Shown here: in pieces, positions 2,983 to 64,000 of the stretch
Layout: each line of letters starts with the position of its first letter
Position numbering within the stretch: position 1 is the first letter of the stretch
Assembly: GCA_028716565.1 (NCBI GenBank)
Contig: JAQUPL010000003.1
Span: 66,029-130,028, forward strand
Source of the DNA: Candidatus Omnitrophota bacterium
GTDB taxonomy: Bacteria > Omnitrophota > Gorgyraeia > Pluralincolimonadales > Pluralincolimonadaceae
DNA length: 64,000 nt
Reading direction: 5' to 3'
The notes under the pieces: model-generated
Seen by the model: only the letters and a program-made list of their open reading frames with translations
What the model was told of the DNA's origin: nothing
The model's database searches: none
Translations under genes and position numbers: made by a program

Positions 2983-3072
2983 GGAGAGGTGTGAGAGCGG
3001 TTGAATCAGCACGCTTGGAAGGCGTGTAGGTCCGTAAGGGCCTCCAGGGTTCAAATCCCTGCCTCTCCGCCA
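2983..3072 (+). tRNA. tRNA-Ser(GGA)
   Basis: Folds by hand: acceptor GGAGAGG/CCTCTCC, anticodon stem CACGC/GCGTG, loop TTGGAAG (anticodon GGA), long variable arm, T-arm CAGGG-TTCAAAT-CCCTG, encoded CCA. Confidence 0.85.
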
Positions 3073-8841: not shown

Positions 8842-9585
8842 ATGGGCGTTTTATCCAATATATTAATAAGTGTTTTTATCGTAAGCGCTATTTCGCTTAT
8901 AGGTATATTTACGCTGCTGTTCAAGAACAAGTCGCTCGACAAGTTATTCTTCGTGCTGGTGAGTTTTGCTACCGGCTCGATGCTCGGTGCGGCTTTTTTG
9001 GACATTCTTCCGGAGGCGGTGGAGAAGGCCTCGCCGGAAATGGTATTCGGGAGCGTGCTTCTCGGCATAATGGTCTTTTTTTTGATGGAGAAGTTCCTCT
9101 ATTGGTATCACTGCCACGAAGGGGAATGTGATGTCCACCAGTTCACGTATTTGAATCTTGTGGGCGACAGCATACATAATTTCCTCGACGGCGTGATCAT
9201 AGCAGCGGCCTTCTTAACGAGCACGTCGGTCGGCGTCATAGCGACAATAGCGATAGTGATGCATGAGATACCGCAGGAGCTGGGGGATTTCGGTATACTC
9301 GTCTACGGCGGCTTCAGCAAAGTCAAAGCGCTGATATATAATTTCATCACCGCCCTTACCGCAGTCGTCGGGGCGGTAATAGCGTATTTTTTCCTGGACA
9401 AGATAACGGGCTTTACGCCTTTCATGCTTGGGATCGCCGCGGGAGGCTTTATCTATATCTCCTGCACGGACCTTATCCCGGAACTTAACAAAGAAAGAAA
9501 GGTTACCAAGTCTGCACAGCAATTCGTCTTAATGCTGCTCGGAATGGGACTTATACTGGCCGGTAAGATATTCTTCAAAGAATAG
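8842..9585 (+). CDS. ZIP family metal (Zn/Fe) transporter
   Basis: Multi-TM protein with the ZIP signature HEIPQELGDFGIL and a His-containing segment. Confidence 0.75.
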   Translation: MGVLSNILISVFIVSAISLIGIFTLLFKNKSLDKLFFVLVSFATGSMLGAAFLDILPEAVEKASPEMVFGSVLLGIMVFFLMEKFLYWYHCHEGECDVHQFTYLNLVGDSIHNFLDGVIIAAAFLTSTSVGVIATIAIVMHEIPQELGDFGILVYGGFSKVKALIYNFITALTAVVGAVIAYFFLDKITGFTPFMLGIAAGGFIYISCTDLIPELNKERKVTKSAQQFVLMLLGMGLILAGKIFFKE

Positions 9586-9609
9586 CCTCCGCCTTAACCC
9601 AATAAAAAT

Positions 9610-22942: not shown

Positions 22943-23044
22943 CCCCGAATGTAGTGTTTCGTGGTAGAATATCTTCGGGGTGCCGAAGCGAGAACATCTA
23001 TGAGCTACTTCATTCGGCATAGCTCAGTTGGGATCATTGGAAAT

Positions 23045-23305
23045 ATGCATTATGTTTACATATTAAAAAGTAACAGCTCTGGAAGATATTATATTGGTGA
23101 AACAAGTAATATCGATAGAAGATTATCAGAGCACAAAGAGAAGAAGAGTAGTTTTGGTAAAAGAAATTGCGATTTAGTTCTTGTCTATAGCAGAGAATTT
23201 CACAACAGGACAGAAGCTCGTAAGTTTGAGAATTTCCTGAAACGGCAAAAGAGCCGGACGTTCATTGAAAGATTAGTTTCAAATAAAATATCCGCTCCCC
23301 TGTAG
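23045..23305 (+). CDS. small GIY-YIG nuclease family protein (COG2827-like)
   Basis: YVYILKSNSSGRYYIGETSNIDRRLSEHKEK...RTEARKFENFLKRQK is a GIY-YIG core; the last 7 codons and the stop are encoded by the tRNA-Asn 5' sequence. Confidence 0.6.
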   Translation: MHYVYILKSNSSGRYYIGETSNIDRRLSEHKEKKSSFGKRNCDLVLVYSREFHNRTEARKFENFLKRQKSRTFIERLVSNKISAPL

Positions 23306-23604
23306 CTCAGTTGGTAGAGCAGTGGACTGTGCAAGGCGCAGCTTCTACAGGAAACTGTAGTTGAAAAAGCAGGAGAATTGTCCGCAGCGTAGTATTAGCT
23401 GACGGAGCGCCGCAGATGTGGCGTCTGGAAGCCCCTCTGGGGTAATCAGCAGCCGAGCCCTTTAGAAATAAAGGGAAGGTTCAGAGACTATGCACCTGCC
23501 TCCTAAACGTAAAGCCGTAGGAGATGATATAGTCCAAGTCCGGTAGCAATACCGGGTCACTTGTAATCCACGTGTCCCTGGTTCGAGTCCAGGCGGGGGA
23601 GCCA
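23296..23604 (+). tRNA. tRNA-Asn(GUU) interrupted by a 233-nt intron-like insertion in the anticodon loop
   Basis: 5' exon 23296-23330 is TCCCCTG-TA-GCTC-AGTTGGTA-GAGC-A-GTGGA-CTGT. 3' exon 23564-23604 is TAA-TCCAC-GTGTC-CCTGG-TTCGAGT-CCAGG-CGGGGGA-G-CCA. The joined exons closely resemble canonical bacterial tRNA-Asn. Confidence 0.6.
23331..23563 (+). ncRNA. putative group I intron within tRNA-Asn
   Basis: Insertion after a U of the anticodon loop and ending in G; possible P1 pairing exon CUGU with intron GCAG (U-G at the splice site); no ORF inside. Confidence 0.5.
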
Positions 23605-27264: not shown

Positions 27265-27885
27265 ATGTGGTATATTTATATATTGAAGTGCAGGGGAGGG
27301 ACTTTATACACGGGCATGACCAAAGATCCGGAACGCCGCTTCAAAGAACATCTGAGCGGGAAAAGCCGTTACACCAGCTACAACCGGCCCGTATGTTTAG
27401 TATATAAAGAGGAATATCCGACCAGGTCCGCGGCGGCGAAACGCGAGGTCGAGATCAAGACCTGGCCGCGCAAGAGGAAGCTCGCGCTCATTAATAAGGA
27501 TAAGGATCTCAAGGAGGCAGGGATGAAAAAAATAATGGCAGCGGCCGCGATATTATGCCTCACGGCGAGTTGTTTCGCGGTAACCCCTTCCCAGCAAAAA
27601 ATGGAACGTGAAGCTTTGGTGGGAGATGATCAGTCGGCAGGGCTTTCCGGGGAAGAGGCGCCCCTCGTGACATTGGCCGGTGAAATAGTCTCGATCAAGA
27701 GGTCGCTCAATAAGATCACGGTCAAGGACCAGAATACGAGCACCGAGAAGGAATTTACCGTAAAGTCTGAAGATATCAAGTCGTTCAAGCTCGGAGATAC
27801 TGTCGAGGTCAAATACAGGCCCGGCTCAGGCGTTGCCGAGAGTATTACGGCCGCGAAACCCTTGCAGCCGTTACCGGCGTACTAA
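27265..27885 (+). CDS. GIY-YIG nuclease domain (27265-27522) in frame with a downstream lipoprotein module (27523-27885)
   Basis: YIYILKCRGGTLYTGMTKDPERRFKEHL...RSAAAKREVEIKTWPRK is a GIY-YIG core with no stop codon before MKKIMAAAAILCLTASC (lipobox); the lipoprotein has its own AAGGAGG RBS and ATG at 27523. Confidence 0.45.
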   Translation: MWYIYILKCRGGTLYTGMTKDPERRFKEHLSGKSRYTSYNRPVCLVYKEEYPTRSAAAKREVEIKTWPRKRKLALINKDKDLKEAGMKKIMAAAAILCLTASCFAVTPSQQKMEREALVGDDQSAGLSGEEAPLVTLAGEIVSIKRSLNKITVKDQNTSTEKEFTVKSEDIKSFKLGDTVEVKYRPGSGVAESITAAKPLQPLPAY

Positions 27886-42988: not shown

Positions 42989-43160
42989 TCAAGCATATCC
43001 TCCGCAATTAAATTGCTATAGGACAAGCTGTCACCATAAGTAAGAAGGGCGGTCCGAAAAGGACGGCCCTCTTTTTTTATTGACAAGGTATTGTGATTAT
43101 GATAAGTTTGATAACAAGCATAAATATTATAGTTATTGTAACTATGATAAGTGGGGGTTT

Positions 43161-55076: not shown

Positions 55077-57056
55077 ATGCCCTTGAAAAGGACCCTTTTC
55101 ACAGCACCTTTCCTTATAGCGCTGCTTTTTATCCTGCCCGCGTCCCGCGCCTCCGAAAGGATACTCTCCTTTGACAGCCGCATCGCCGTCCATCCGGACT
55201 CGACGATGACCGTCACCGAAACGATAAAAGTAAATGCCGAGGGCAGCCGGATAAAGCGGGGGATCTACCGCGATTTTCCCACTATGTACAGAGGCGGTTA
55301 TAGGGTCGGGTTCAATATTAAAGAAGTAAAGAGGGACGGCGCCCCGGACGGCTACCATACGGAGAACCTCCCGAACGGCGTGCGCGTTTATATCGGGAAG
55401 AGCGGCGTATTTATCTCCCGGGGCGAACATACCTATGAATTGACTTATAATACCGACAGGCAGCTCGGTTTCTTCGAAGACCACGACGAGCTTTACTGGA
55501 ATGTCACGGGTAATGGGTGGATATTCCCCATAGACCGGGCGTCAGCCACCGTCATCCTGCCCGGCGGCATCCCGGAGGACCGGATAAGGACCGAGGCGTA
55601 TACAGGACCCCAAGGATCAAAAGCGAAAGAATTTAATGTTTCCCGGCGTGACGGAAATCCTTACTTTTTAACGACGAGGCCATTAAGGCCTTACGAGGGC
55701 CTCACGATAGTTGCCGGCTGGCCCAAGGGTTACATAACCCAGCCGCAGGCTGTTTCGAGGCCGAAAGAAGCCGAGGACCTGCCGCCGCCGTCCGGCTCGA
55801 CGAGCGGGACTTTTCGTTTTCTTATGCCGTCCCCCGGCAAGATGATCCTGGGCGAGGCGCTCATATTAGTGATCGTAATATATTATATTTTAGTCTGGGC
55901 GAAGGTCGGCAGAGACCCGGAGAAGGGCGTCATCGTTCCGCTCTTCGCGCCGCCCAAAGGCATATCTCCGGCCGCATGCCGTTATATTTCTAAGATGTCC
56001 TATGACAACAAAGCTTTCGCCGCCTCGCTCATAGATATGGCCGTAAAGGGCAATATCGAGATAATCGAGGAGGTGAAGGGCAAGTATGAGATCAAGCGGA
56101 AGGGCGCAGACCTTTCCGGGCTTACGAACGACGAGAAGAAGGTGTTCGACATCCTCCTTAAGGGTTCAGAACACCTTGATCTGGACCAGGAGAACCACGT
56201 AAAGATAAAAGGCGCAATAACCTCACTCAAGGATGCCCTTAAGACGGCATACGAAAAGGTATACTTCCTCACCAATACGCAATATTTCGTCCCGGGCGCG
56301 GTCCTATCGTTCGTCATCCTGGCGCTGTGCGCCTTCGTGACATCGCCGTCGATCACGCCGGAAAGGATAGCCGCGATGGTCTTCATGTGCGTATGGCTCT
56401 CCCTGTGGACCGTGGGCGTCATAGCGCTGCTTATGGCCACGATAACGGCCTGGAAGAAACTCTTTTCAAGCGGCAGGTTCTATTATATAGGCGAGCCGCT
56501 CTTCCTTTCGCTCTTTTCGGCGCCGTTCATATTCTTCGAGATAATGGGCCTGGGTTTCTTAACCGCGGCGTCTTCATTGTTGATGCCGGTTGCGCTCTTC
56601 GAGATCATATTCATCAATGTCCTTTTTTACCACTTGCTCAAGGCGCGGACGCTTGCCGGCAGGAGCGTAATGGATTCGATAGAGGGATTCAAGATGTACC
56701 TCGGCACGGCGGAAAAAGACGAGATAAGGAGCATGGGCGCCCCTGCCCGGACCCCGCAGATCTTCGAAAGATATCTTCCTTATGCCATCGCGCTGGATGT
56801 CGAGAATGCATGGGCGGAATATTTCACCGACGTACTTTCAAAGGCGAGCGTGGACGGGAAAGGGTATTCTCCGGGCTGGTATTCGGGCACGTCTTATAGC
56901 ACGTTTAGCGCCGCGGGCTTCGCGTCGGCGATGGGGACGTCGCTTTCCGGCGCCATATCGTCTTCTTCAGCCGCCCCGGGTTCAAGTTCCGGTTTTAGCG
57001 GAGGTGGCGGAGGCGGAGGAGGAGGCGGCGGCGGTGGTGGGGGAGGAGGCTGGTAA
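55077..57056 (+). CDS. DUF2207 domain membrane protein with C-terminal poly-Gly tail
   Basis: Signal peptide, extracytoplasmic domain, 3-4 TM helices, C-terminal [19 protein letters not shown]; gene immediately follows lemA. Confidence 0.75.
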
Positions 57057-58108
57057 TGATGGAGATACTGACAGGCTTAATAAAAGAGATCTGGCACACA
57101 TTCAGCACGGCCGCGCCATATATTATTTTCGGCACTTTTATGGCGGGGTTCATCCATATTTTCTTTGACCGCGAAAAAGTGGTAAAGCACCTCGGCAAGC
57201 CGGGGCTCAAGTCGGTATTTTTGGCGGCCCTGTTCGGCATACCTTTGCCGCTCTGCTCGTGCGGCGTCCTGCCGACGGCGATGTCGTTGCGCAAGAGCGG
57301 CGCCTCGAAGGGAGCGACACTTTCATTCTTGATATCTACGCCCGAGACAGGCATCGACTCGATATTCCTCACATACGCGTTGCTCGACCCGCTGATGACC
57401 GTATTCCGGCCTTTCGCGGCGCTTATTACCGCCCTGGTGGCCGGCATATCGGAAAACCTCTTCGGGAAGAAAGAAAAACCCGCGGCCGCGCCGAAGGAAG
57501 AAAAATGCGTCTTCTGCGAAGAGAACGGGCACGAACACGCGCACGCGCATTCCTTCTTCAGCAAATTCGCGCACTCGATGGAATACGCTTTTGTGGACCT
57601 GCTCGGGGATATTGCCCTCTGGCTCACCCTGGGCATAATAGCCGGAGGCGTGATATCGTATTTCGTGCCGGCGAGTTTGATCGAGAATTACCTCGGCTAC
57701 GACTTGCGCGCGATGTTCATAATGCTTTTGATAGGGATACCTTTGTATATCTGCGCGTCGGCCTCGACGCCTATCGCGGCGGCGCTCATCGCGAAGGGGA
57801 TGAGCCCGGGCGTGGCGCTCGTATTTTTGCTCGCCGGGCCGGCGACGAATACCGCCGGGATAATCACTATAGCGAAGTTTTTAGGGAAGAGGACGGTCGT
57901 TATCTATCTTTTGGCAATATCGGCATGCACGATCGGCATGGGGCTCCTCCTGAATTATATCTACAAGACTTTCCATATCGACATAATGGCTGTCCTCGGC
58001 AAGGGCTCACATATGCATCTCGCGCAGGACGCGGGCCTTGTCGCAGGACCACTGCTCATCATCCTCATGATAAACGCCCTGCGCAGAAAGATTGCTTGCC
58101 CGGCATGA
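57056..58108 (+). CDS. DUF318/ArsP-type permease
   Basis: Polytopic; LPLCSCGVLP motif and a central His-rich cytoplasmic loop (ENGHEHAHAHS). Confidence 0.6.
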   Translation: MMEILTGLIKEIWHTFSTAAPYIIFGTFMAGFIHIFFDREKVVKHLGKPGLKSVFLAALFGIPLPLCSCGVLPTAMSLRKSGASKGATLSFLISTPETGIDSIFLTYALLDPLMTVFRPFAALITALVAGISENLFGKKEKPAAAPKEEKCVFCEENGHEHAHAHSFFSKFAHSMEYAFVDLLGDIALWLTLGIIAGGVISYFVPASLIENYLGYDLRAMFIMLLIGIPLYICASASTPIAAALIAKGMSPGVALVFLLAGPATNTAGIITIAKFLGKRTVVIYLLAISACTIGMGLLLNYIYKTFHIDIMAVLGKGSHMHLAQDAGLVAGPLLIILMINALRRKIACPA

Positions 58109-58113
58109 ATTAC

Positions 58114-58166
58114 GGTGACAGTATACTTAATTATTGGACGAATGGGGAATTAAGTATACTGTCACT
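58114..58166. repeat. palindromic element A1 (GGTGACAGTATACTTAATT...AATTAAGTATACTGTCAC)
   Basis: Perfect 17-bp inverted arms at 58116-58132 and 58148-58164 around a 15-nt spacer; member of the GGTGACAG family. Confidence 0.8.
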
Positions 58167-58205
58167 ATAATTATTTGTATAATATAAGCAAGAAAGCGTT
58201 AAAGT

Positions 58206-59144
58206 ATGATCAAATTCATAAAAAACCTTAAAACGAACGATACGATCGAGGATGTGTATTTCCTTAAGAAGAAGGAGCTCGCGCTAACGCAAGGCGGCAA
58301 ACCTTACCTCAAGCTGACCCTCTCGGACAAATCCGGCCGGATGGAAGCGAAGATGTGGGAGAATGCCGAGGCCGCCGACGAGATGGTCGCCACAGGCGCG
58401 GCGGTCTTTGTCCAGGGCCGCGTCGATTCGTTCAAGGGCGACCTGCAGATACGCGTCGACCAGATCCGGATCGCCGACCCGAAAGAATATAAATTCGAAG
58501 ACCTCGTCCGCTCGGTCGAGAAGCCTGACGAAATATTCAAGAATATCAAGGGGATGCTCGACGGGATCTCCGAAAAATGGCTCGCGGAGCTGGCGAAAGA
58601 ATTTCTCGCAGACGAAGAGCTCATGGCGAAATTCAAAAAATCGCCGGGCGCGCAGAGCTGGCACAATGCATACATCGGCGGGCTGATGGAACACACGTAT
58701 GAAGTGATGCGCATCAGCGGCGTGGTCTGCGACCTCTATACCGAGGCGGACCGCGACATCGTGATGATCGGCGCGTTTGCCCACGACATCGGCAAGACGG
58801 TCGAGCTTGACATCAACACCTTCGAATATACGGTCGACGGCGGGCTGATCGGCCACTTGACGCTCGGCTACGAGATGGTGTCCGGGAAGATAAAAGATAT
58901 CAAGGGTTTCCCCAGGGAGCTCGCCCTGCGCCTCAAACACATCATCCTAAGCCACCACGGTGAATACGAACAGCAGTCGCCGATACTGCCGAAGACACTC
59001 GAGGCGACGATCGTCTACCAGGCCGACGAGCTCGTCTCGCAGGCGAACGCGGTCAAGGAGATCATCACCCAGCAGTCCGGCGGCGACAAAGTCTGGTCGT
59101 CGTTCGTAAGCCTCAAGAGCCGCAAATATCTGCTAAAGAAATAA
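58206..59144 (+). CDS. YhaM-like 3'-5' exoribonuclease (OB-fold + HD domain)
   Basis: N-terminal OB-fold; HD-domain residues H…HD…H (HNAYIGGLMEHT; AFAHDIGK). Confidence 0.7.
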   Translation: MIKFIKNLKTNDTIEDVYFLKKKELALTQGGKPYLKLTLSDKSGRMEAKMWENAEAADEMVATGAAVFVQGRVDSFKGDLQIRVDQIRIADPKEYKFEDLVRSVEKPDEIFKNIKGMLDGISEKWLAELAKEFLADEELMAKFKKSPGAQSWHNAYIGGLMEHTYEVMRISGVVCDLYTEADRDIVMIGAFAHDIGKTVELDINTFEYTVDGGLIGHLTLGYEMVSGKIKDIKGFPRELALRLKHIILSHHGEYEQQSPILPKTLEATIVYQADELVSQANAVKEIITQQSGGDKVWSSFVSLKSRKYLLKK

Positions 59145-59169
59145 TTAAGGTGACAGTATACTTAATTAT
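59143..59169. repeat. palindromic element A2 (AATTAAGGTGACAGTATACTTAATTAT)
   Basis: Overlaps the yhaM-like stop codon and lies immediately 5' of the osmC RBS. Confidence 0.8.
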
Positions 59170-59180
59170 GAGGAGGAAAA

Positions 59181-59561
59181 ATGTATCACGTAGACGTATT
59201 GTGCAAGGAAGACAGCGTTTTTAACGTCAAGGCGGGCACGGCGGGCATTACGATAGACATGAGCGAGAAGAACCTGTCCCCGCTGCATGCGCTCCTCGGG
59301 GCGTTCGGCTCGTGCGTAGGCGTTTTTGTCAGGAAGTATGCCGACAACCTGAAACTCCCCATCAAGGAATTCAGCGTCTGCGTAGAGTCCGACCTCGTGA
59401 AAGAGAATCCGATGGGTTTCCGCTATATAAGCGTCTCAATAGACTTAAAAGGCGTGGAACTGGACGATACAAAGAGGGAAGGCCTGATGCGCTTCATAGG
59501 GAATTGCCCGGTGGGTAACACGCTGCGCGGCAACCCGGAAATAAACGTTGTCCTTAAATAA
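59181..59561 (+). CDS. OsmC/Ohr family peroxiredoxin-like protein
   Basis: Two conserved Cys regions (LGAFGSCVGV; IGNCPVG) in the OsmC fold; GAGGAGG RBS. Confidence 0.75.
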   Translation: MYHVDVLCKEDSVFNVKAGTAGITIDMSEKNLSPLHALLGAFGSCVGVFVRKYADNLKLPIKEFSVCVESDLVKENPMGFRYISVSIDLKGVELDDTKREGLMRFIGNCPVGNTLRGNPEINVVLK

Positions 59562-59584
59562 TTAAGTATACTGTCACCTTAATT
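59558..59584. repeat. palindromic element A3 = exact reverse complement of A2
   Basis: ATAATTAAGTATACTGTCACCTTAATT; overlaps the osmC stop, so osmC is bracketed by perfect 27-bp inverted repeats. Confidence 0.8.
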
Positions 59585-59918
59585 ATTTCAATATTCTTAT
59601 CGAAGTCGCCGAGCCGATATTTTCCGTTATGGCGGTGCCTGTCGCGTTCACGTGGCAGCCCCTCTTTATCGCCTCTAAGGTGACCGGTTTATAATCGATC
59701 CCATAGAACTGGGTATCGGGAGTGATCTCGAATAAAACCCTCTCGCCGTTGTCGTCAGTGACCGCGATCGTCGGTTTCAGCCCCCTGGACGGGTCGGCCG
59801 ATTTCGCGGAAGTCACCTTACCCGTAATGCTCTGCGTCTTGACCTTTGCCTCTGCCGGCGCGGCGGAAAAAGAAACCACAACCGCACCAAGCAATACCGC
59901 TAACATTATTTTTTTCAT
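59583..59918 (-). CDS. hypothetical small secreted protein
   Basis: Signal peptide MKKIMLAVLLGAVVVSFSAAPAEA; AAGGAG RBS on the minus strand. Confidence 0.4.
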   Translation of the reverse strand: MKKIMLAVLLGAVVVSFSAAPAEAKVKTQSITGKVTSAKSADPSRGLKPTIAVTDDNGERVLFEITPDTQFYGIDYKPVTLEAIKRGCHVNATGTAITENIGSATSIRILK

Positions 59919-59928
59919 TCCGCTCCTT

Positions 59929-59961
59929 GAATAATTAAGTGAGCTGTTACCATAATTATTC
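59929..59961. repeat. palindromic element A4 (degenerate: GAATAATTAAGTGAGCTGTTACCATAATTATTC)
   Basis: Same AATTAAG...TAATTAT arms around a diverged GGTAACAGCTCACT core; overlaps the stop of the gene at 59956. Confidence 0.55.
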
Positions 59962-60288
59962 GGTGAGTTTGACGGATTTCGCCAGCCCGACCCCGCCCTC
60001 TAGGTTATCGTATTCTATCTCGACCGGGTCGTTCTGGTTGATATTGCCGAGGCTTATCGGCTCGCCTATCGGGCCGGAGATGACGGTTGCGGCTGTCACG
60101 TAGAAGAGTATAGTGACGCCGGACTCATCTACGACTGAAATAGTGGAATCCTCGCCCTCTACCTGCGCCACCGTGACCGTATCTACCTGCGCGGCGAGAG
60201 TTCCGCTGGTGCCGTCGGCCTGGACAGTCCCCAAACCCGCAAAAAGGGTAAAAGAGACAACCGATAACATAATAATAGCAGTTTTCAT
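59956..60288 (-). CDS. hypothetical small secreted protein
   Basis: Signal peptide MKTAIIMLSVVSFTLFAGLGTVQA; AAGGAGG RBS; Thr/Val-rich beta-type composition. Confidence 0.4.
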   Translation of the reverse strand: MKTAIIMLSVVSFTLFAGLGTVQADGTSGTLAAQVDTVTVAQVEGEDSTISVVDESGVTILFYVTAATVISGPIGEPISLGNINQNDPVEIEYDNLEGGVGLAKSVKLTE

Positions 60289-60335
60289 TGCGCCCTCCTT
60301 GGAGTATAATTATACCATCCAATTATAGCACAAAT

Positions 60336-63300
60336 ATGATCAATCTGAACACCCAGCAAAAATTAGCCGCCGAGACCCTCGACGGCCCCGTATTAGTCCT
60401 TGCCGGACCCGGAACAGGAAAGACCGAGCTGCTTTCCGTCCGTGCGGCGAACATAATCAAGGCAAAGAAGGCCCGCCCCGAGAATATCCTCATCCTCACA
60501 TACACAAATGCCGCCGCGAAGGCGATGAAAGAGCGCCTCGTCAATCTCTTGGGCGCCGACGCGTATAATATCGAGACCGCGACGTTCCACAGCTTCGCGA
60601 ATTCAGTCGTCCTCGAGTCCGAGGAAGCCGCCGAATACATCCAGGAACGCGTCCAGATAACCGACATCGAGCAGATAAAGCTCCTCGAATACATTTTGGA
60701 TAATACAGACGGTATCGACAAGATCCGGCCGTTCCGCGCGCCGTACGCTTTTGAGCGCGAGATAAGCCAGCGCATAACCGAGCTTAAACGTGAAGGCGTT
60801 TCGCCGGCGCAGTTCGCCAAGATAATAGAAAAAACCGAGCCTGACGGGGCCTATATCGAAGAAAAACATATAGAACGGCTCAAGGCCCTGGCTACCGTAT
60901 ATAAGCTGTATGAAGAGTACAAAGCGGGCAAAAATAAGGCACTTTTCGATGACCGGGGCAGGTACGATTACGATGATATGATACTTTTCGCGGTCGAGGC
61001 GATCCGCAATGAACCCGAACTTAAAGCGGCCCTCCAAAAACAATATACCTACATCATGGTCGACGAGTTCCAGGACACCAACGGTGCCCAGATGGACCTG
61101 TTGTTTGAGTTGGTAGGAGATTTTGGTGACAGTTTCTCTAATTCCCGTACCAAGGGGTCTGAATTAGGTAACTGTCACCAAAATCTCTGTTGCGTCGGCG
61201 ATGACGACCAGTCAATATTCCGCTTCCAGGGTGCATCGGTCGCGAATTTCCGCGAACTCAAAAAAAGATTTCCGAAATTAAAAGAGATCCCGCTCGAGAA
61301 AAACTATCGCTCGACCAAAGAGATAATCTCGCTCGCCGGGCGCATAATAAATAACCTTCCGGTAAAAGAGCGCGTCCACGCCAAAGAGCTCGCGCCTGAG
61401 ACAGATTTTAAGAAAAAGACGATCGAATACGACGAATTCACGACCGAGACCGAGGAACTGCTCTTCATCGCGCGCCGCATAAAGGAGATAGCGAATAAAG
61501 AGGAGGTTCCTCTGGATGAAGTCGCCGTTCTCGTGCGCCAGCGTGATGATATCCTCAAGATCGTAGACACTTTCCTGCGCGCAGGCATCCCGTACGCCAC
61601 CGACGGCAAGGAGGATATCGCCGGCGAGAAACGCGTCCGCCAGATGCTCGACGTGCTCTATTTCGCGCACACGCCTGACCTCGACATCGAGCAGAAGGAC
61701 GCCTATCTTTACCGCATTTTGACCGCCGATTATATGCAGATCCCGATGAACGACGTCCTGCGCTTCATCGCCGGCGTCCGGGTGAAAAAATATGAACAGC
61801 GCAAGAAGGGCGAAGCACCGACGGTTTCAATGTTCAGTGAAATCATGAATTCGGTGACAGCTTCTAAGATTGGTGACAAGAATTTGGTGACTGCTTCTCT
61901 AATTCCCGCTAAAAGTGGTAATGAATTAGGTAGCTGTCACCAAATTCTTTCTAGTTTGCTTTTCGAAGCCGAATCTCGCCCCGTCCACGCCATGCTCATG
62001 CAATACATCAAAGACGCCGGCGTCATGAAATTTATCCTCGATAAGTATAATAAAAACGACCTCCTTCGTATCCGCGACCTGCGCGCGCTCACGTCATTCG
62101 TCAACATGGTCAAGGAATCCGACATCGCGCGCCCGGGCATCACGCTCAAGGAATTCATCGACGAGCTGGAGACGCGCAAGGCCCACGGCATGTCCCTGCA
62201 GGGCGAGCTCGTCACGGCGACACAGGAAGGCGTGCGCATCTACACGGCCCACGGCTCAAAAGGCCTCGAATTCCACACGGTATTCATCCCGTTCTGCCTC
62301 GAGAAGAAGCGCTGGCCGAAGCGGCCGCAGGGCGTCTCGATCCCGCTCCCGCCCGAGGTCTACAAGTCGAAGGAGGTCCCGACCGACAAGGATATCTTAA
62401 AACAGCTCGATTATTACGACGAGACGCGCCTCTTCTACGTCGCCTCGACGCGCGCCAAGGCGAACCTCATCTACACCGCCAGCCCGACCGAGAGCGCGAT
62501 CCCGAGCTCGTACCTTACGGGCGTGGCCGATGGGGGAGCCGCCGCCAAGAAAGAAGAGGACCTGCTCAAAGCCGCGCTCGAGATAACCGACGCAGAAGAC
62601 CCGTTCATCGGCACCGACAAGATATTGAAAGATCTTGTCGCCGGCATCTCGCTCAACCCCACATCGCTCAACAATTATATAAATTGCCCGCGCAAATATC
62701 TCTATGATAACGCCCTGATGCTGCCGTCGGGCAAGAAGCAGCCGCTCGTCTTCGGTAACTGCACCCACAAGGCGCTGGAAAATACCTATGATAAATTCAT
62801 GAAGACCGGCAAATTCCCGGATTTTGCGTTCTTTAAGGAGGCGTTCGCCAAAGAGTTAAACCACGAAGCCCCGGAAGCGGCGATAAAGACCGCCTGCCTG
62901 CGCCAGGTCGAGACGTTCAAGGCCTGGTTCAAGGAAGAGTCGCGCCTGCCGGTCAAGCCGCTCGGCCTCGAGAAACGGCTCGTGGTTATGCTTGAAGACG
63001 ACCTTAAATTTTCCGGAAAGTATGATAAAACCGAGCCCGTTGGCACCGCCGCCGTTCGTGTGATAGATTACAAGACCGGCGAGCCGGACAAGCACGTCAA
63101 GGGCATAAACAGTTCGCTCTCGAAAGAGATCCCGGTTGCAAGCGATGAGTTCGAAGGATATTTGCGCCAGCTCATCGCGTACAAACTACTCTTCGACCGC
63201 GATAAGAATGAATCGCAGGGCCGCAAGGTAAAGGAGGGGGTGCTCGTCTTCCTCGACCCGGCCAAAGAGTCGGTTGCCAAGCACGACCTCAAGGCGGGCG

Positions 63301-63485
63301 GATTCGTCAAGAAGAAGGTCGAGCTGACCGAGGATATGGTCGCCGAGCTCGAGTCGGCCATCAAGGACGTCCGTCACCGCATCAAGAAGCTCGACTTCGC
63401 CAAACTGCCGGAGATCGACGAGAAACCCGGCAAATGCGGCCAGGGCAACAATAAATGCGATTTTTACGATATCTGCTGGGGATAG
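60336..63485 (+). CDS. UvrD/PcrA-family SF1 helicase fused to a C-terminal PD-(D/E)xK nuclease with Cas4/AddB-like Cys cluster
   Basis: Motif I AGPGTGKT, motif II DEFQDTN, motif III VGDDDQSIFRFQGA; C-terminus has YINCPRKY...DYKTGEP...KCGQGNNKCDFYDIC (C-x6-C-x5-C); contains two in-frame palindromic-element insertions. Confidence 0.75.
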   Translation: MINLNTQQKLAAETLDGPVLVLAGPGTGKTELLSVRAANIIKAKKARPENILILTYTNAAAKAMKERLVNLLGADAYNIETATFHSFANSVVLESEEAAEYIQERVQITDIEQIKLLEYILDNTDGIDKIRPFRAPYAFEREISQRITELKREGVSPAQFAKIIEKTEPDGAYIEEKHIERLKALATVYKLYEEYKAGKNKALFDDRGRYDYDDMILFAVEAIRNEPELKAALQKQYTYIMVDEFQDTNGAQMDLLFELVGDFGDSFSNSRTKGSELGNCHQNLCCVGDDDQSIFRFQGASVANFRELKKRFPKLKEIPLEKNYRSTKEIISLAGRIINNLPVKERVHAKELAPETDFKKKTIEYDEFTTETEELLFIARRIKEIANKEEVPLDEVAVLVRQRDDILKIVDTFLRAGIPYATDGKEDIAGEKRVRQMLDVLYFAHTPDLDIEQKDAYLYRILTADYMQIPMNDVLRFIAGVRVKKYEQRKKGEAPTVSMFSEIMNSVTASKIGDKNLVTASLIPAKSGNELGSCHQILSSLLFEAESRPVHAMLMQYIKDAGVMKFILDKYNKNDLLRIRDLRALTSFVNMVKESDIARPGITLKEFIDELETRKAHGMSLQGELVTATQEGVRIYTAHGSKGLEFHTVFIPFCLEKKRWPKRPQGVSIPLPPEVYKSKEVPTDKDILKQLDYYDETRLFYVASTRAKANLIYTASPTESAIPSSYLTGVADGGAAAKKEEDLLKAALEITDAEDPFIGTDKILKDLVAGISLNPTSLNNYINCPRKYLYDNALMLPSGKKQPLVFGNCTHKALENTYDKFMKTGKFPDFAFFKEAFAKELNHEAPEAAIKTACLRQVETFKAWFKEESRLPVKPLGLEKRLVVMLEDDLKFSGKYDKTEPVGTAAVRVIDYKTGEPDKHVKGINSSLSKEIPVASDEFEGYLRQLIAYKLLFDRDKNESQGRKVKEGVLVFLDPAKESVAKHDLKAGGFVKKKVELTEDMVAELESAIKDVRHRIKKLDFAKLPEIDEKPGKCGQGNNKCDFYDICWG
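61119..61185. repeat. palindromic element B1, in frame inside the helicase gene
   Basis: GATTTTGGTGACAGTT...AACTGTCACCAAAATC with perfect 16-bp arms plus inner CTAATTC/GAATTAG pairing; encodes ~22 extra residues between helicase motifs II and III. Confidence 0.8.
61847..61947. repeat. palindromic element B2 (composite, three left half-sites), in frame inside the helicase gene
   Basis: GAATTCGGTGACAGCT / TTGGTGACAAG / GAATTTGGTGACTGCT...AGCTGTCACCAAATTC; encodes ~33 residues (NSVTASKIGDKNLVTASLIPAKSGNELGSCHQI). Confidence 0.75.
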
Positions 63486-63491
63486 AAAGGT

Positions 63492-63561
63492 GAATTTTGG
63501 TGACTGCTCCTTAATTCCCCTATATACTTATTGTGAATTAAGGTAGCTGTCACCAAAATTC
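63492..63561. repeat. palindromic element B3 between the helicase gene and the NYN gene
   Basis: GAATTTTGGTGACTGCT...AGCTGTCACCAAAATTC; starts 7 nt after the helicase stop and ends 12 nt before the NYN start. Confidence 0.8.
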
Positions 63562-63573
63562 TTGGTTTATAAT

Positions 63574-63945
63574 ATGCCCATACTCATCGACGGCTGGAAC
63601 ATGGTTCGCCACGAAGGTTCAGGGATAGATCATGACGACGCCTTGGCCGGCGCAATGCACCTGATCGCCATCCTGGAGAAGTTCCAGGAGACCCACGCCG
63701 ACCCCATCACCCTTGTATTCGACAGCAAGAATGAATATCTCGATATACCGAACAGGAGCACGGCGAAACTGCATATCGTCGCGGCCCGGAACGCCGATTC
63801 TTACATAAAGAAACACATCGACCAGATCCCGCCGCGCCAGCGCCGCAACCTTCGCGTCGTCTCCTCCGACCGCTCGCTGTATTTTTATGCGAAGGATGCG
63901 CGGGCTACGCCGATGAAATGTGAGGAGTTTTGGGGTAAGGTATGA
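63574..63945 (+). CDS. NYN-domain (YacP/Rae1-like) putative ribonuclease
   Basis: MPILIDGWNMVRH resembles the LIDGYN signature of YacP/NYN PIN-like nucleases; acidic residues spaced as in PIN folds. Confidence 0.55.
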   Translation: MPILIDGWNMVRHEGSGIDHDDALAGAMHLIAILEKFQETHADPITLVFDSKNEYLDIPNRSTAKLHIVAARNADSYIKKHIDQIPPRQRRNLRVVSSDRSLYFYAKDARATPMKCEEFWGKV

Positions 63946-64000
63946 AAATTTCTGAAAGAAATTTTAACTTTTTGTCGTCTATATACTAGAGGATTATTAT

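Follow-up and report, generated by a model that had tools for sequence, protein, structure and literature searches.

A family of short palindromic repeats was found in a 64-kb stretch of an Omnitrophota contig (64,000 nucleotides, hereafter the window), where it occupies 8 loci, 7 of them within 5.5 kb. The repeats can form hairpins, their sites are filled in some relatives and empty in others, two copies lie in frame inside a helicase gene, and the same sites are re-used in relatives by other repeat families. On the whole, we think it probable that these are members of a lineage-specific, non-autonomous family of the MITE or REPIN type, which would be moved in trans and would persist at the ends of genes and in protein loops that tolerate insertions.

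The repeat arm and its hairpins

The core GGTGACAG occurs nine times in the 64 kb for 0.70 expected, a number that none of 100 shuffles reaches, and eight of the nine occurrences fall within 58.1-63.6 kb. Over the same window, TTGGTGACWGYT is found eight times for 0.39 expected. A preliminary description of this DNA had listed seven elements of two types, A and B, and had proposed that they share a core. All seven were recovered at the positions first given, and both the enrichment of GGTGACAG/TTGGTGACWGYT and a single arm profile bear out the common core. Types A and B have one arm in common, (A/T-rich)GGTGACAG-N4-6-(T)TAATT, of about 25 nt, in which an A/T-rich end and the core are followed by 4-6 variable bases and (T)TAATT. 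The profile, built from 10 arms and run over the 64-kb window, recovers 11 full arms and partial copies at 61850 and 43025-43039. The count of seven copies in 5.5 kb stands, but an extra, degenerate eighth copy lies outside that range. The features are the following:

43025..43039, minus strand: degenerate solo arm fragment ATGGTGACAGCT (profile E 0.057)
58108..58172, unstranded: A1, two type A arms (GGTGACAGTATACTTAATT / AATTAAGTATACTGTCAC) forming an inverted doublet around a 15-nt spacer
59138..59169, plus strand: A2, single type A unit ATAATTAAG-GTGACAGTATA-CTTAATTAT
59181..59561, plus strand: OsmC-like gene (Pfam OsmC), bracketed by A2 and A3
59558..59589, minus strand: A3, a lone type A unit that is A2 in exact reverse complement
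59929..59961, minus strand: A4, degenerate single unit GGTAACAGCTCACTTAATT, given for the minus strand (profile E 1.2e-4)
60336..63485, plus strand: UvrD/PcrA-type helicase gene with a C-terminal PD-(D/E)XK nuclease domain, host of B1 and B2
61117..61187, unstranded: B1, inverted doublet within the helicase ORF, its outer arms perfect over 18 nt
61847..61949, unstranded: B2, within the helicase ORF; two additional partial left arms (61847-61877) come before the inverted doublet itself (61878-61949)
63492..63561, unstranded: B3, inverted doublet in the intergenic spacer that separates the helicase stop (63483-63485) from a NYN/YacP-like gene (63562-63945)

The arm is single in A2, A3, A4 and the 43-kb remnant, whereas A1 and B1-B3 are inverted doublets. 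Elements measure 27-103 nt; in the doublets, the two arms are 16-25 nt long and show 92-100% complementarity (25 nt and 92% in A1). Copies within this genome are alike, as seen from the mutual alignment of B1, B2 and B3 (z 11-19). It should be noted that 12 of the 13 arm matches are concentrated in 5.5 kb and that the other 58 kb contains one remnant, a distribution that counts against mobility; genome-wide dispersal is the hallmark of a mobile family.

When folded as DNA, the doublets give -16.5 kcal/mol for A1 (z -8.9 against shuffled sequences), -23.2 kcal/mol for B1 (z -8.6), -22.5 kcal/mol for B2 (z -6.8) and -22.3 kcal/mol for B3 (z -12.3). The hairpins of the type A singlets are weak, with energies between -3.3 and -4.3 kcal/mol and z between -3 and -3.8. 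Type B arms taken singly are also weakly self-complementary, at energies between -1 and -3.1 kcal/mol and z between -0.4 and -2.7. Among the four doublets compared, paired changes on both sides keep pairing at 6 of 24 stem pairs.

Copies at gene ends and inside a helicase gene

Type A copies coincide with the ends of genes. A1, located between the stop of an ArsP-like permease gene and an HD-domain gene, shares its first base with the final base of the ArsP-like TGA (58106-58108). A2 covers the TAA of the HD gene (59142-59144) and leaves 11 nt between its end and the osmC start codon. The AT-rich ends of A3 supply TAA stop codons to osmC (59559-59561) and to a convergent minus-strand ORF (59583-59585). 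A4, flanked by two minus-strand ORFs resembling small secreted proteins, overlaps the stop of ORF 59956-60288. Indeed, the type A ends TAATTAAG / CTTAATTA give stop codons in both orientations. The overlap with a stop codon, which the preliminary description had pointed out, is a property of type A only, as B1 and B2 overlap none and B3 begins 7 nt past the helicase TAG. The 43025-43039 fragment is downstream of a BioY gene and adjoins a terminator-like hairpin.

Such a location, exactly at gene ends and in inter-cistronic spacers, with A2 just upstream of the osmC ribosome-binding site, would suit cis-regulatory or RNA-structural elements serving the flanking genes (operators, terminators, mRNA-stabilizing or processing hairpins). 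We nevertheless find this explanation distinctly unlikely. Promoter-like matches merely overlap the AT-rich parts of the elements, Rfam offers no family beyond sub-threshold generic hairpins, two copies are within coding sequence, and the elements are not conserved at orthologous positions, A1 being absent from relatives. Intrinsic terminators (a GC-rich stem followed by a T run) were rejected as candidates, no element being found among the terminator-like sites.

A2 and A3 had been presented as exact reverse complements over 27 nt; the identity in fact extends over 32 nt (100% complementary, 388 nt apart). These perfect inverted repeats enclose the whole of osmC and its ribosome-binding site. 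This raises the possibility of a mini-transposon that is bounded by A2 and A3 and carries osmC as cargo, as was first proposed, or of an invertible, phase-variable osmC segment delimited by them. However, osmC is found between the HD gene and the helicase gene in all 5 relatives examined (L001, L003, L010, L011, L012), none of which has A2/A3-type repeats around it. Moreover, the type A unit also exists as independent copies elsewhere in the window, where no recombinase, invertase or transposase is encoded. Either variant is very unlikely in our opinion; gene order largely refutes the cargo reading, and osmC has every appearance of a resident gene. Because it is syntenic in five relatives without the repeats, A2 and A3 are best regarded as single copies independent of each other and oppositely oriented.

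B1 and B2 are located within the helicase ORF, which the preliminary description had not mentioned. The encoded protein (P0001, 1049 aa) is identical to NCBI MDD5546523.1 and matches Pfam PF00580, PF13361 and PF12705. B1 reads as residues ~262-283 (DFGDSFSNSRTKGSELGNCHQN), between motif II (DEFQD) and motif III (VGDDDQS), and aligns with PcrA 1pjr as an insertion just before motif III. B2 reads as residues ~505-540. Both copies keep the reading frame, and for each of them the frame used is the only one of six that lacks stops; the peptides predicted from them include DSFSNSR and SGNELGSCHQILSSLLFEAESR. The loop of intergenic B3 is AT-rich and has stops in 5 of 6 frames. In an AlphaFold2 model of the helicase (mean pLDDT 81.9), coil with pLDDT <50 is predicted at residues 264-280 (B1) and 512-521 (B2). 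B1 and B2 are in-frame, stop-free inserts that, judging from this model and from the PcrA alignment, lie in tolerated surface loops; these are the traits of inserts of the Rickettsia palindromic element (RPE) type.

One may ask whether B1 and B2 are translated at all, or removed from the RNA as hairpin-type intervening sequences. Near-perfect stems of 16-18 bp could, by inference, suit a double-strand-specific RNase. However, B1 and B2 keep the frame and intergenic B3 does not have their stop-free reading, the intragenic copies of relatives all leave ORFs intact, and we know of no ligation mechanism for such a case. Removal from the RNA is extremely improbable, and the inserts are probably translated.

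The same sites in related genomes

The relatives compared have helicases 58-90% identical to that of the window, 90% being the value for the nearest in the database. The A1 site is unoccupied in both L001 and L003. At the A2 site, relatives have a different unit (GGGGACGTCCCATTGGGGGACACCCC in L001) or a Yip1 gene (L010-L012). At the A4 junction, L001 has a GGGGAC unit together with additional genes (two-component system) that span about 2.5 kb. Overall, the five intergenic copies are all at junctions where gene content varies among relatives. As for the two helicase sites, they are either empty in relatives or filled by other palindromic repeats. Site 1 is unoccupied in P0002, the closest relative, as well as in ~100 of 120 homologues, with a baseline spacer of 5-8 aa; the 8-aa baseline spacer is also present in outgroups. 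Site 2 contains several unrelated palindromic-repeat peptides across relatives. In L003, the two helicase copies do not differ in their 30-nt arms, and the peptides translated from them have the same 22 residues DVPFGDTLLQKNKNGVSPSRTS. One relative's repeat unit is also in frame within a response-regulator gene.

In a helicase tree built with both insert sites masked, the filled site-1 proteins (P0001, P0007, P0020, P0025 and P0030) are each nearest to empty-site relatives, a pattern that speaks for repeated gain or loss. The DNA of L002 is identical to that of L001, the two differing in gene calling only; no same-species polymorphism was seen. Comparison of filled and empty sites revealed no target-site duplication at any copy, the spacers being diverged and the boundaries approximate. 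Both negatives count against mobility. The preliminary description had envisaged that the repeats might prove to be conserved at fixed positions in orthologous loci. Sequences were found to differ at orthologous sites, and A1 to be missing from L001 and L003. Its proposal of one palindromic MITE-like family is retained here to the extent that a single family behaves like inserted DNA, with A1 and helicase site 1 empty in relatives.

Alternatively, these could be non-mobile hairpin sites, that is, ancient fixed palindromes homogenized by gene conversion or cruciform repair, or co-evolving with a genome-specific hairpin-binding protein, and spreading by sequence replacement. In line with this idea, the HD/osmC spacer, the post-osmC spacer and helicase sites 1 and 2 have different palindromes in relatives, and copies within a genome are near-identical. 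A short motif likeness is also found (TTGG[G/T]GAC; TTGGGGACAG in L010 vs TTGGTGACAG here), and a multi-motif left arm is common to B2 and its orthologous-site counterparts. However, full-length alignments of B1-B3 with the orthologous-site copies of other genomes give z ~0-2, and because this is no better than with shuffled sequences, common descent is not established. Truly empty sites exist, with a baseline spacer that outgroups share, and A1 is without counterpart in two relatives. Finally, arms only 16-30 nt long would be short for gene conversion by recombination. Fixed palindromes are in our view a rather unlikely explanation. The idea that the GGTGACAG family is a mutated, concertedly evolving descendant of the GGGGAC family of relatives was also considered and rejected. 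Because full-length alignments are insignificant, only a short-motif likeness between the two families is claimed.

Origin of the family and comparison with known systems

Returning to a family of inserted, non-autonomous elements, the following scheme can be proposed. Doublets would be extrudable as 65-72-nt hairpins. An enzyme encoded elsewhere in the genome would recognize the arm or the hairpin and copy or move the element, probably via a single-stranded or cruciform intermediate. Harmful insertions would then be purged by selection. Survivors would be found, on the one hand, at gene ends and in tiny intergenic spacers within a region of variable gene content and, on the other hand, in two surface loops of the helicase-nuclease that tolerate them, where copies that keep the frame and contain no stop would be read as ~21-35 extra disordered residues. 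A bolder possibility, to which we give little credit, is that the elements and their putative hairpin-specific enzyme are not passively filtered junk. They would form a system with a real target preference that re-occupies the same helicase codons in separate Omnitrophota lineages (at least five filled, each with empty-site sisters), possibly crosses phyla (near-identical arms in a Pseudomonadota MAG), and recurrently generates protein loops and gene-content breakpoints.

As the preliminary description had indicated, no transposase, RAYT or integrase was found in the window (60 ORFs scanned against Pfam), and none is listed in the gene tables of the relatives' loci (L001, L003, L010-L012), which likewise counts against mobility. 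Type B hairpin patterns were searched for in GTDB species genomes and JGI metagenomes, neither of which includes the source genome, and no Omnitrophota copy with the inner CTAATTC/GAATTAG pair was retrieved. The matches are other hairpins having the forced 12-13-nt arm in common, most of them probably arising by chance or from unrelated MITEs. A naive estimate of chance matches is too low because the palindrome makes the second arm "free." An unrelated Pseudomonadota MAG, JBDLQR01 (bin.101), has arms agreeing at ~12/15 unforced positions (counted by eye), which is compatible with horizontal spread. As a separate observation, toxin-antitoxin genes are bracketed by relatives in a Pseudomonadota MAG.

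Peptide searches were made with queries so short as to be below the reach of both tools used. A 49-aa query from the B1 and B2 peptides gave no word candidates, and a 34-aa query (the relatives' GDVPFGDT...GVSPNGTSP insert) retrieved, among 1.84 billion representatives, one unrelated repeat protein (P0121). Viral contigs and plasmids gave no relevant match. Rfam, at gathering and E-value thresholds, gave no family, its sub-threshold matches being to generic hairpins (miRNA precursor). In the literature, the core and arm strings returned primer coincidences only, and nothing relevant was found for Omnitrophota or Omnitrophica with palindromic or inverted repeats. The claim that the family is previously undescribed is consistent with these Rfam, literature-string, plasmid and viral negatives, although negatives are not proof.

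If the favored reading is true, Rickettsia-type tolerance and translation of selfish palindromic DNA in essential genes would extend to an uncultured phylum with compact genomes. The helicase offers a natural comparison series, in which two loops stand empty in some lineages and in others are occupied, or re-occupied by different repeat families; it could be useful for studying site choice and survival of the elements as well as the gain of disordered protein loops. Such repeats also inflate apparent protein divergence and may mislead annotation and alignment of Omnitrophota genes.

Several known systems share features with this family. As in MITEs (Correia, ERIC, RUP, Nezha; review PMC10969869), the elements are small (<~500 bp), have terminal inverted repeats and no coding capacity, differ in presence or absence, here between species, and are occasionally in frame within genes. 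However, MITEs usually have target-site duplications and ends in common with a parent IS, and neither was found here (60 window ORFs for the IS). As in REPs and REPINs, singlets co-exist with inverted doublets able to form long hairpins, tandem clusters of partial arms recall BIMEs, target-site duplication is lacking, the sequence is lineage-specific and mobilization would occur in trans. However, REPs are extragenic, whereas B1 and B2 are inside an ORF. REPs have a 5' GT[AG]G head, whereas arms here start with (A/T-rich)GGTGACAG, without GTAG or GTGG at a fixed offset. The REP unit is a 20-40-nt imperfect palindrome, whereas single arms here are weakly self-complementary. Finally, a RAYT gene (Y1 HUH transposase; Y1_Tnp) is flanked by its REPs, and the window has no RAYT.

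Genome-specific imperfect palindromes between single genes also recall integron attC sites and CALINs. However, the attC core is RYYYAAC...GTTRRRY, whereas GTT is here in the left arm and AAC in the right arm. The attC reading was rejected in view of this reversed order, of near-perfect stems without extrahelical bases, of the lack of an integrase in the window and of the copies inside an ORF. The 32-nt perfect inverted repeats A2 and A3 are reminiscent of invertons, but no invertase is found among the 60 window ORFs. Coding palindromes of Nematomorpha mitochondria are likewise hairpin-forming inverted repeats in protein genes, with both arms translated, but they belong to a eukaryotic organelle, are much longer, share no core and have no intergenic copies (PMC6649704).

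Because two copies are in-frame insertions in the helicase gene, RPEs appear to be the closest analogue. To our knowledge, RPEs are restricted to Rickettsia, with a conserved peptide encoded by each family. In PMC10969869, RPEs are described as ~150 bp long, in frame in unrelated housekeeping genes and read as a fold-compatible extra peptide (Ogata et al., 2000, as cited there), with several families and no transposase of their own. By that account, the elements of the window, also short in-frame palindromes without their own transposase, would be related to RPEs by functional analogy and not by homology, and no sequence relationship is expected. They differ from the RPEs so described by their size (27-103 nt), host phylum (Omnitrophota), sequence, variable loops and 27-32-nt single units that supply stop codons. 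The repeat family appears to be new, and its kind, MITE/REPIN/RPE-like, to be one already known.

The palindromic repeats and their folding

All seven elements of the preliminary description, namely type A copies A1 (an inverted doublet), A2, A3 and A4 (singlets) and the type B inverted doublets B1-B3, are present as described within 57.8-64.0 kb of the window, which comes from a Candidatus Omnitrophota (Omnitrophica) MAG. The motif GGTGACAG occurs nine times in the whole window for 0.70 copies expected, a count reached in none of 100 shuffles, and eight of these copies fall within 58114-63554. The longer type B arm TTGGTGACWGYT has eight copies in the window (0.39 expected). The repeat feature is real and statistically solid. 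Arms of both types share an alignment, (A/T-rich)GGTGACAG followed by 4-6 nt and (T)TAATT, on which we take types A and B to be a single family. A profile built from ten arms and run over the window matched 11 arms in full, one further partial arm belonging to B2 and a remnant at 43025-43039; 12 of the 13 matches lie within 58.1-63.6 kb.

The inverted-repeat finder reports A1, B1, B2 and B3 as hairpins with arms of 16-33 nt. Folded as single-stranded DNA, the four doublets reach -16.5 to -23.2 kcal/mol (z -6.8 to -12.3), and the singlets fold weakly (-3.3 to -4.3 kcal/mol). That these hairpins are regulatory or RNA elements is quite improbable. Searches of viral contigs, plasmids and Rfam returned nothing for the repeats, as did a literature search for the repeat strings.

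Repeats within the helicase gene

It had been stated that each element overlaps a stop codon. This holds only for the type A copies, whose AT-rich ends (TAATTAAG / CTTAATTA) supply the TAA stops of osmC, the HD gene and two ORFs on the minus strand (coordinates checked by hand). B1 and B2 lie in frame in a helicase gene, a placement that had been overlooked.

Helicase ORF and the repeats within it
60336-63485, UvrD/PcrA-type helicase with a PD-(D/E)XK nuclease domain, 100% identical to NCBI MDD5546523.1
61117-61187, B1, within the helicase ORF, which stays open
61847-61949, B2, within the helicase ORF, which stays open

Of the six reading frames, only that of the helicase runs through B1 and through B2 without a stop codon; for intergenic B3, five of the six contain stops. 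B1 is located after helicase motif II (DEFQD) and before motif III (VGDDDQS), at a segment for which PcrA (1pjr) has no residues. An AlphaFold2 model of the helicase has a mean pLDDT of 81.9; among its stretches scoring under 50 are residues 264-280, which belong to B1, and residues 512-521, which belong to B2, and both are predicted as coil. Excision of the two copies at the RNA level, given these open frames, is hardly credible.

The positions corresponding to B1 (site 1) and B2 (site 2) were surveyed in 120 homologues. In the 88 more distant homologues, and in several that are closer, the site 1 spacer measures 8 aa; a spacer of 5 aa is also seen. Eleven of the 120 proteins, each of them a member of the close clade (identity of at least 58%), have 12-32 aa inserted here. 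With the two sites masked, the tree gives every filled site-1 lineage (the window's own helicase P0001, and P0007, P0020, P0025 and P0030) empty-site proteins as nearest relatives. Site 1 has therefore been repeatedly gained or lost. Site 2 holds several unrelated palindrome-derived peptides: GDVPFGDT...GVSPNGTSP, GTCQKGT, GGHT and, each encoded in frame by a GC-rich palindromic repeat family, RLRGNDK...SPRTRGSS (P0026) and SPLPKGERE...SPQRGEGKGEG (P0022). In the relative's locus L003, sites 1 and 2 carry two GGGGAC-type hairpins of ~71 nt with identical 30-nt arms, and the encoded peptides are identical across 22 residues (DVPFGDTLLQKNKNGVSPSRTS).

B1-B3 are strongly alike within the window (alignment z 11-19) and have no significant similarity to the same-site elements of relatives L001, L003 and L010 (z about 0-2). 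Short likenesses were seen (TTGG[G/T]GAC; L010 TTGGGGACAG against window TTGGTGACAG), on which we base no claim of shared ancestry. Of the 24 stem pairs compared across the four doublets, 6 stay paired despite changes on both sides. Fixed hairpin sites, kept alike through conversion or a co-evolving binding protein, are an unlikely explanation. The simplest reading is that various repeat families insert recurrently and persist just at permissive sites.

Gene junctions and osmC in related loci

Loci around helicases 81-90% identical were compared: L001/L002 (helicase P0002, GCA_003141835.1), L003 (P0007), L010 (P0004), L011 (P0012) and L012 (P0015). The anchor order (ArsP-like permease, OB-fold/HD protein, OsmC, helicase, NYN/YacP) is conserved. 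Between window 57056-64000 and L001, L003 and L010-L012, gene content differs at every anchor-gene junction, the variable genes including Yip1, a methyltransferase, small ORFs, TPR/glycosyltransferase, a two-component system, Fic and an M48 peptidase. All five intergenic window copies (A1-A4 and B3) lie at such junctions. Downstream, the relatives carry defence genes (restriction-modification, Fic, TIR, DndB, AbiE); the repeats thus adjoin a region that is plastic, resembles a defence island and runs on beyond the window end.

A2 and A3 are perfect 32-nt inverted repeats 388 nt apart, and osmC had been proposed as a cargo gene. It stands in the same place in all these relatives (L001, L003, L010-L012) without A2/A3-like repeats and is therefore resident. 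No invertase came up when 60 window ORFs were scanned against Pfam; osmC as cargo or as an invertible segment is very unlikely.

Neither L001 nor L003 carries an element at the A1 site. In L001, another unit, GGGGACGTCCCATTGGGGGACACCCC, occupies the HD/osmC spacer; L001 has three copies of it. One (9329-9356) is in frame within the receiver domain of a response-regulator gene (8880-9590, minus strand), with conceptual peptide HEMGCPPMGRPP in the context ...LHEMGCPPMGRPPVLILTAKD...; in-frame insertion is therefore not confined to the helicase.

Matches elsewhere and likeness to known repeats

The absence of transposase, RAYT and integrase from the window was borne out by the Pfam scans of the 60 ORFs. 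Unexpectedly, the few pattern matches in GTDB genomes included MAGs with intergenic doublets, singlets and partial-arm tandems whose arm, GAAWTYGGTGACAGTTACC(T)NATT, is nearly that of the window.

GAAWTYGGTGACAGTTACC(T)NATT hairpins in unrelated MAGs
L004 2773-3642, Pseudomonadota MAG bin.101
L005 2742-2820, 4658-4715 and 6464-6505, Pseudomonadota MAG bin.101
L006 1353-1588, Allosphingosinicella MAG
L008 4113-4176, Sneathiellales MAG

Genes of PIN toxin and sugar metabolism lie between these hairpins, which include tandem partial arms resembling those of B2; the loci contain no transposase. By-eye counting gave ~12 of 15 pattern-unforced positions matching between the L005 and window arms. This likeness, from few loci and an ascertainment-biased search, may reflect a cross-phylum family or recognising enzyme. 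Metagenome contigs L014, L016-L019, L021, L023, L025 and L027-L029 share a perfect palindrome of 80-100 nt, ATGTCATACAGGTTTGGTGACWGCTTGC..., probably an unrelated MITE matching just the forced core; their GC is 0.37-0.41, and the three checked (L014, L021, L025) are almost without long ORFs.

Elsewhere in the window, Rfam gives a borderline group I intron match (23320-23556; 52.5 bits, gathering score 50), for which no host gene was identified, directly downstream of a 114-aa GIY-YIG ORF (22961-23305); a second GIY-YIG ORF lies at 27265-27885. These features (23-28 kb) are unconnected with the palindromic repeats. GC falls to 0.36 at 24-26 kb, across RDD, DUF2157 and GDYXXLXY membrane-protein genes. 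ARAGORN calls a tRNA-Ser(GGA) at 2983-3072 that the Rfam gathering-threshold scan does not list.

We consider it reasonably probable that the repeats are a lineage-specific, non-autonomous palindromic family of the MITE/REPIN kind. An enzyme would mobilise them in trans, copies would persist at the ends of genes and in two helicase loops that tolerate them, and the loop copies would be read through. What is of most interest is that two copies sit in frame in the helicase and that, across Omnitrophota, different palindromic repeats have come to occupy these two sites time and again, an aspect other than that emphasised in the preliminary description. Compared with strict MITEs, the window copies are without target-site duplication and, among the 60 ORFs scanned, without a parent IS. 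Strict REP/REPINs differ in that the window family has two intragenic copies (B1, B2), arms without a GTAG head, single type B arms that self-pair weakly and no RAYT among the 60 window ORFs. The presumed read-through of the helicase inserts may be likened to that of Rickettsia palindromic elements (PMC10969869).
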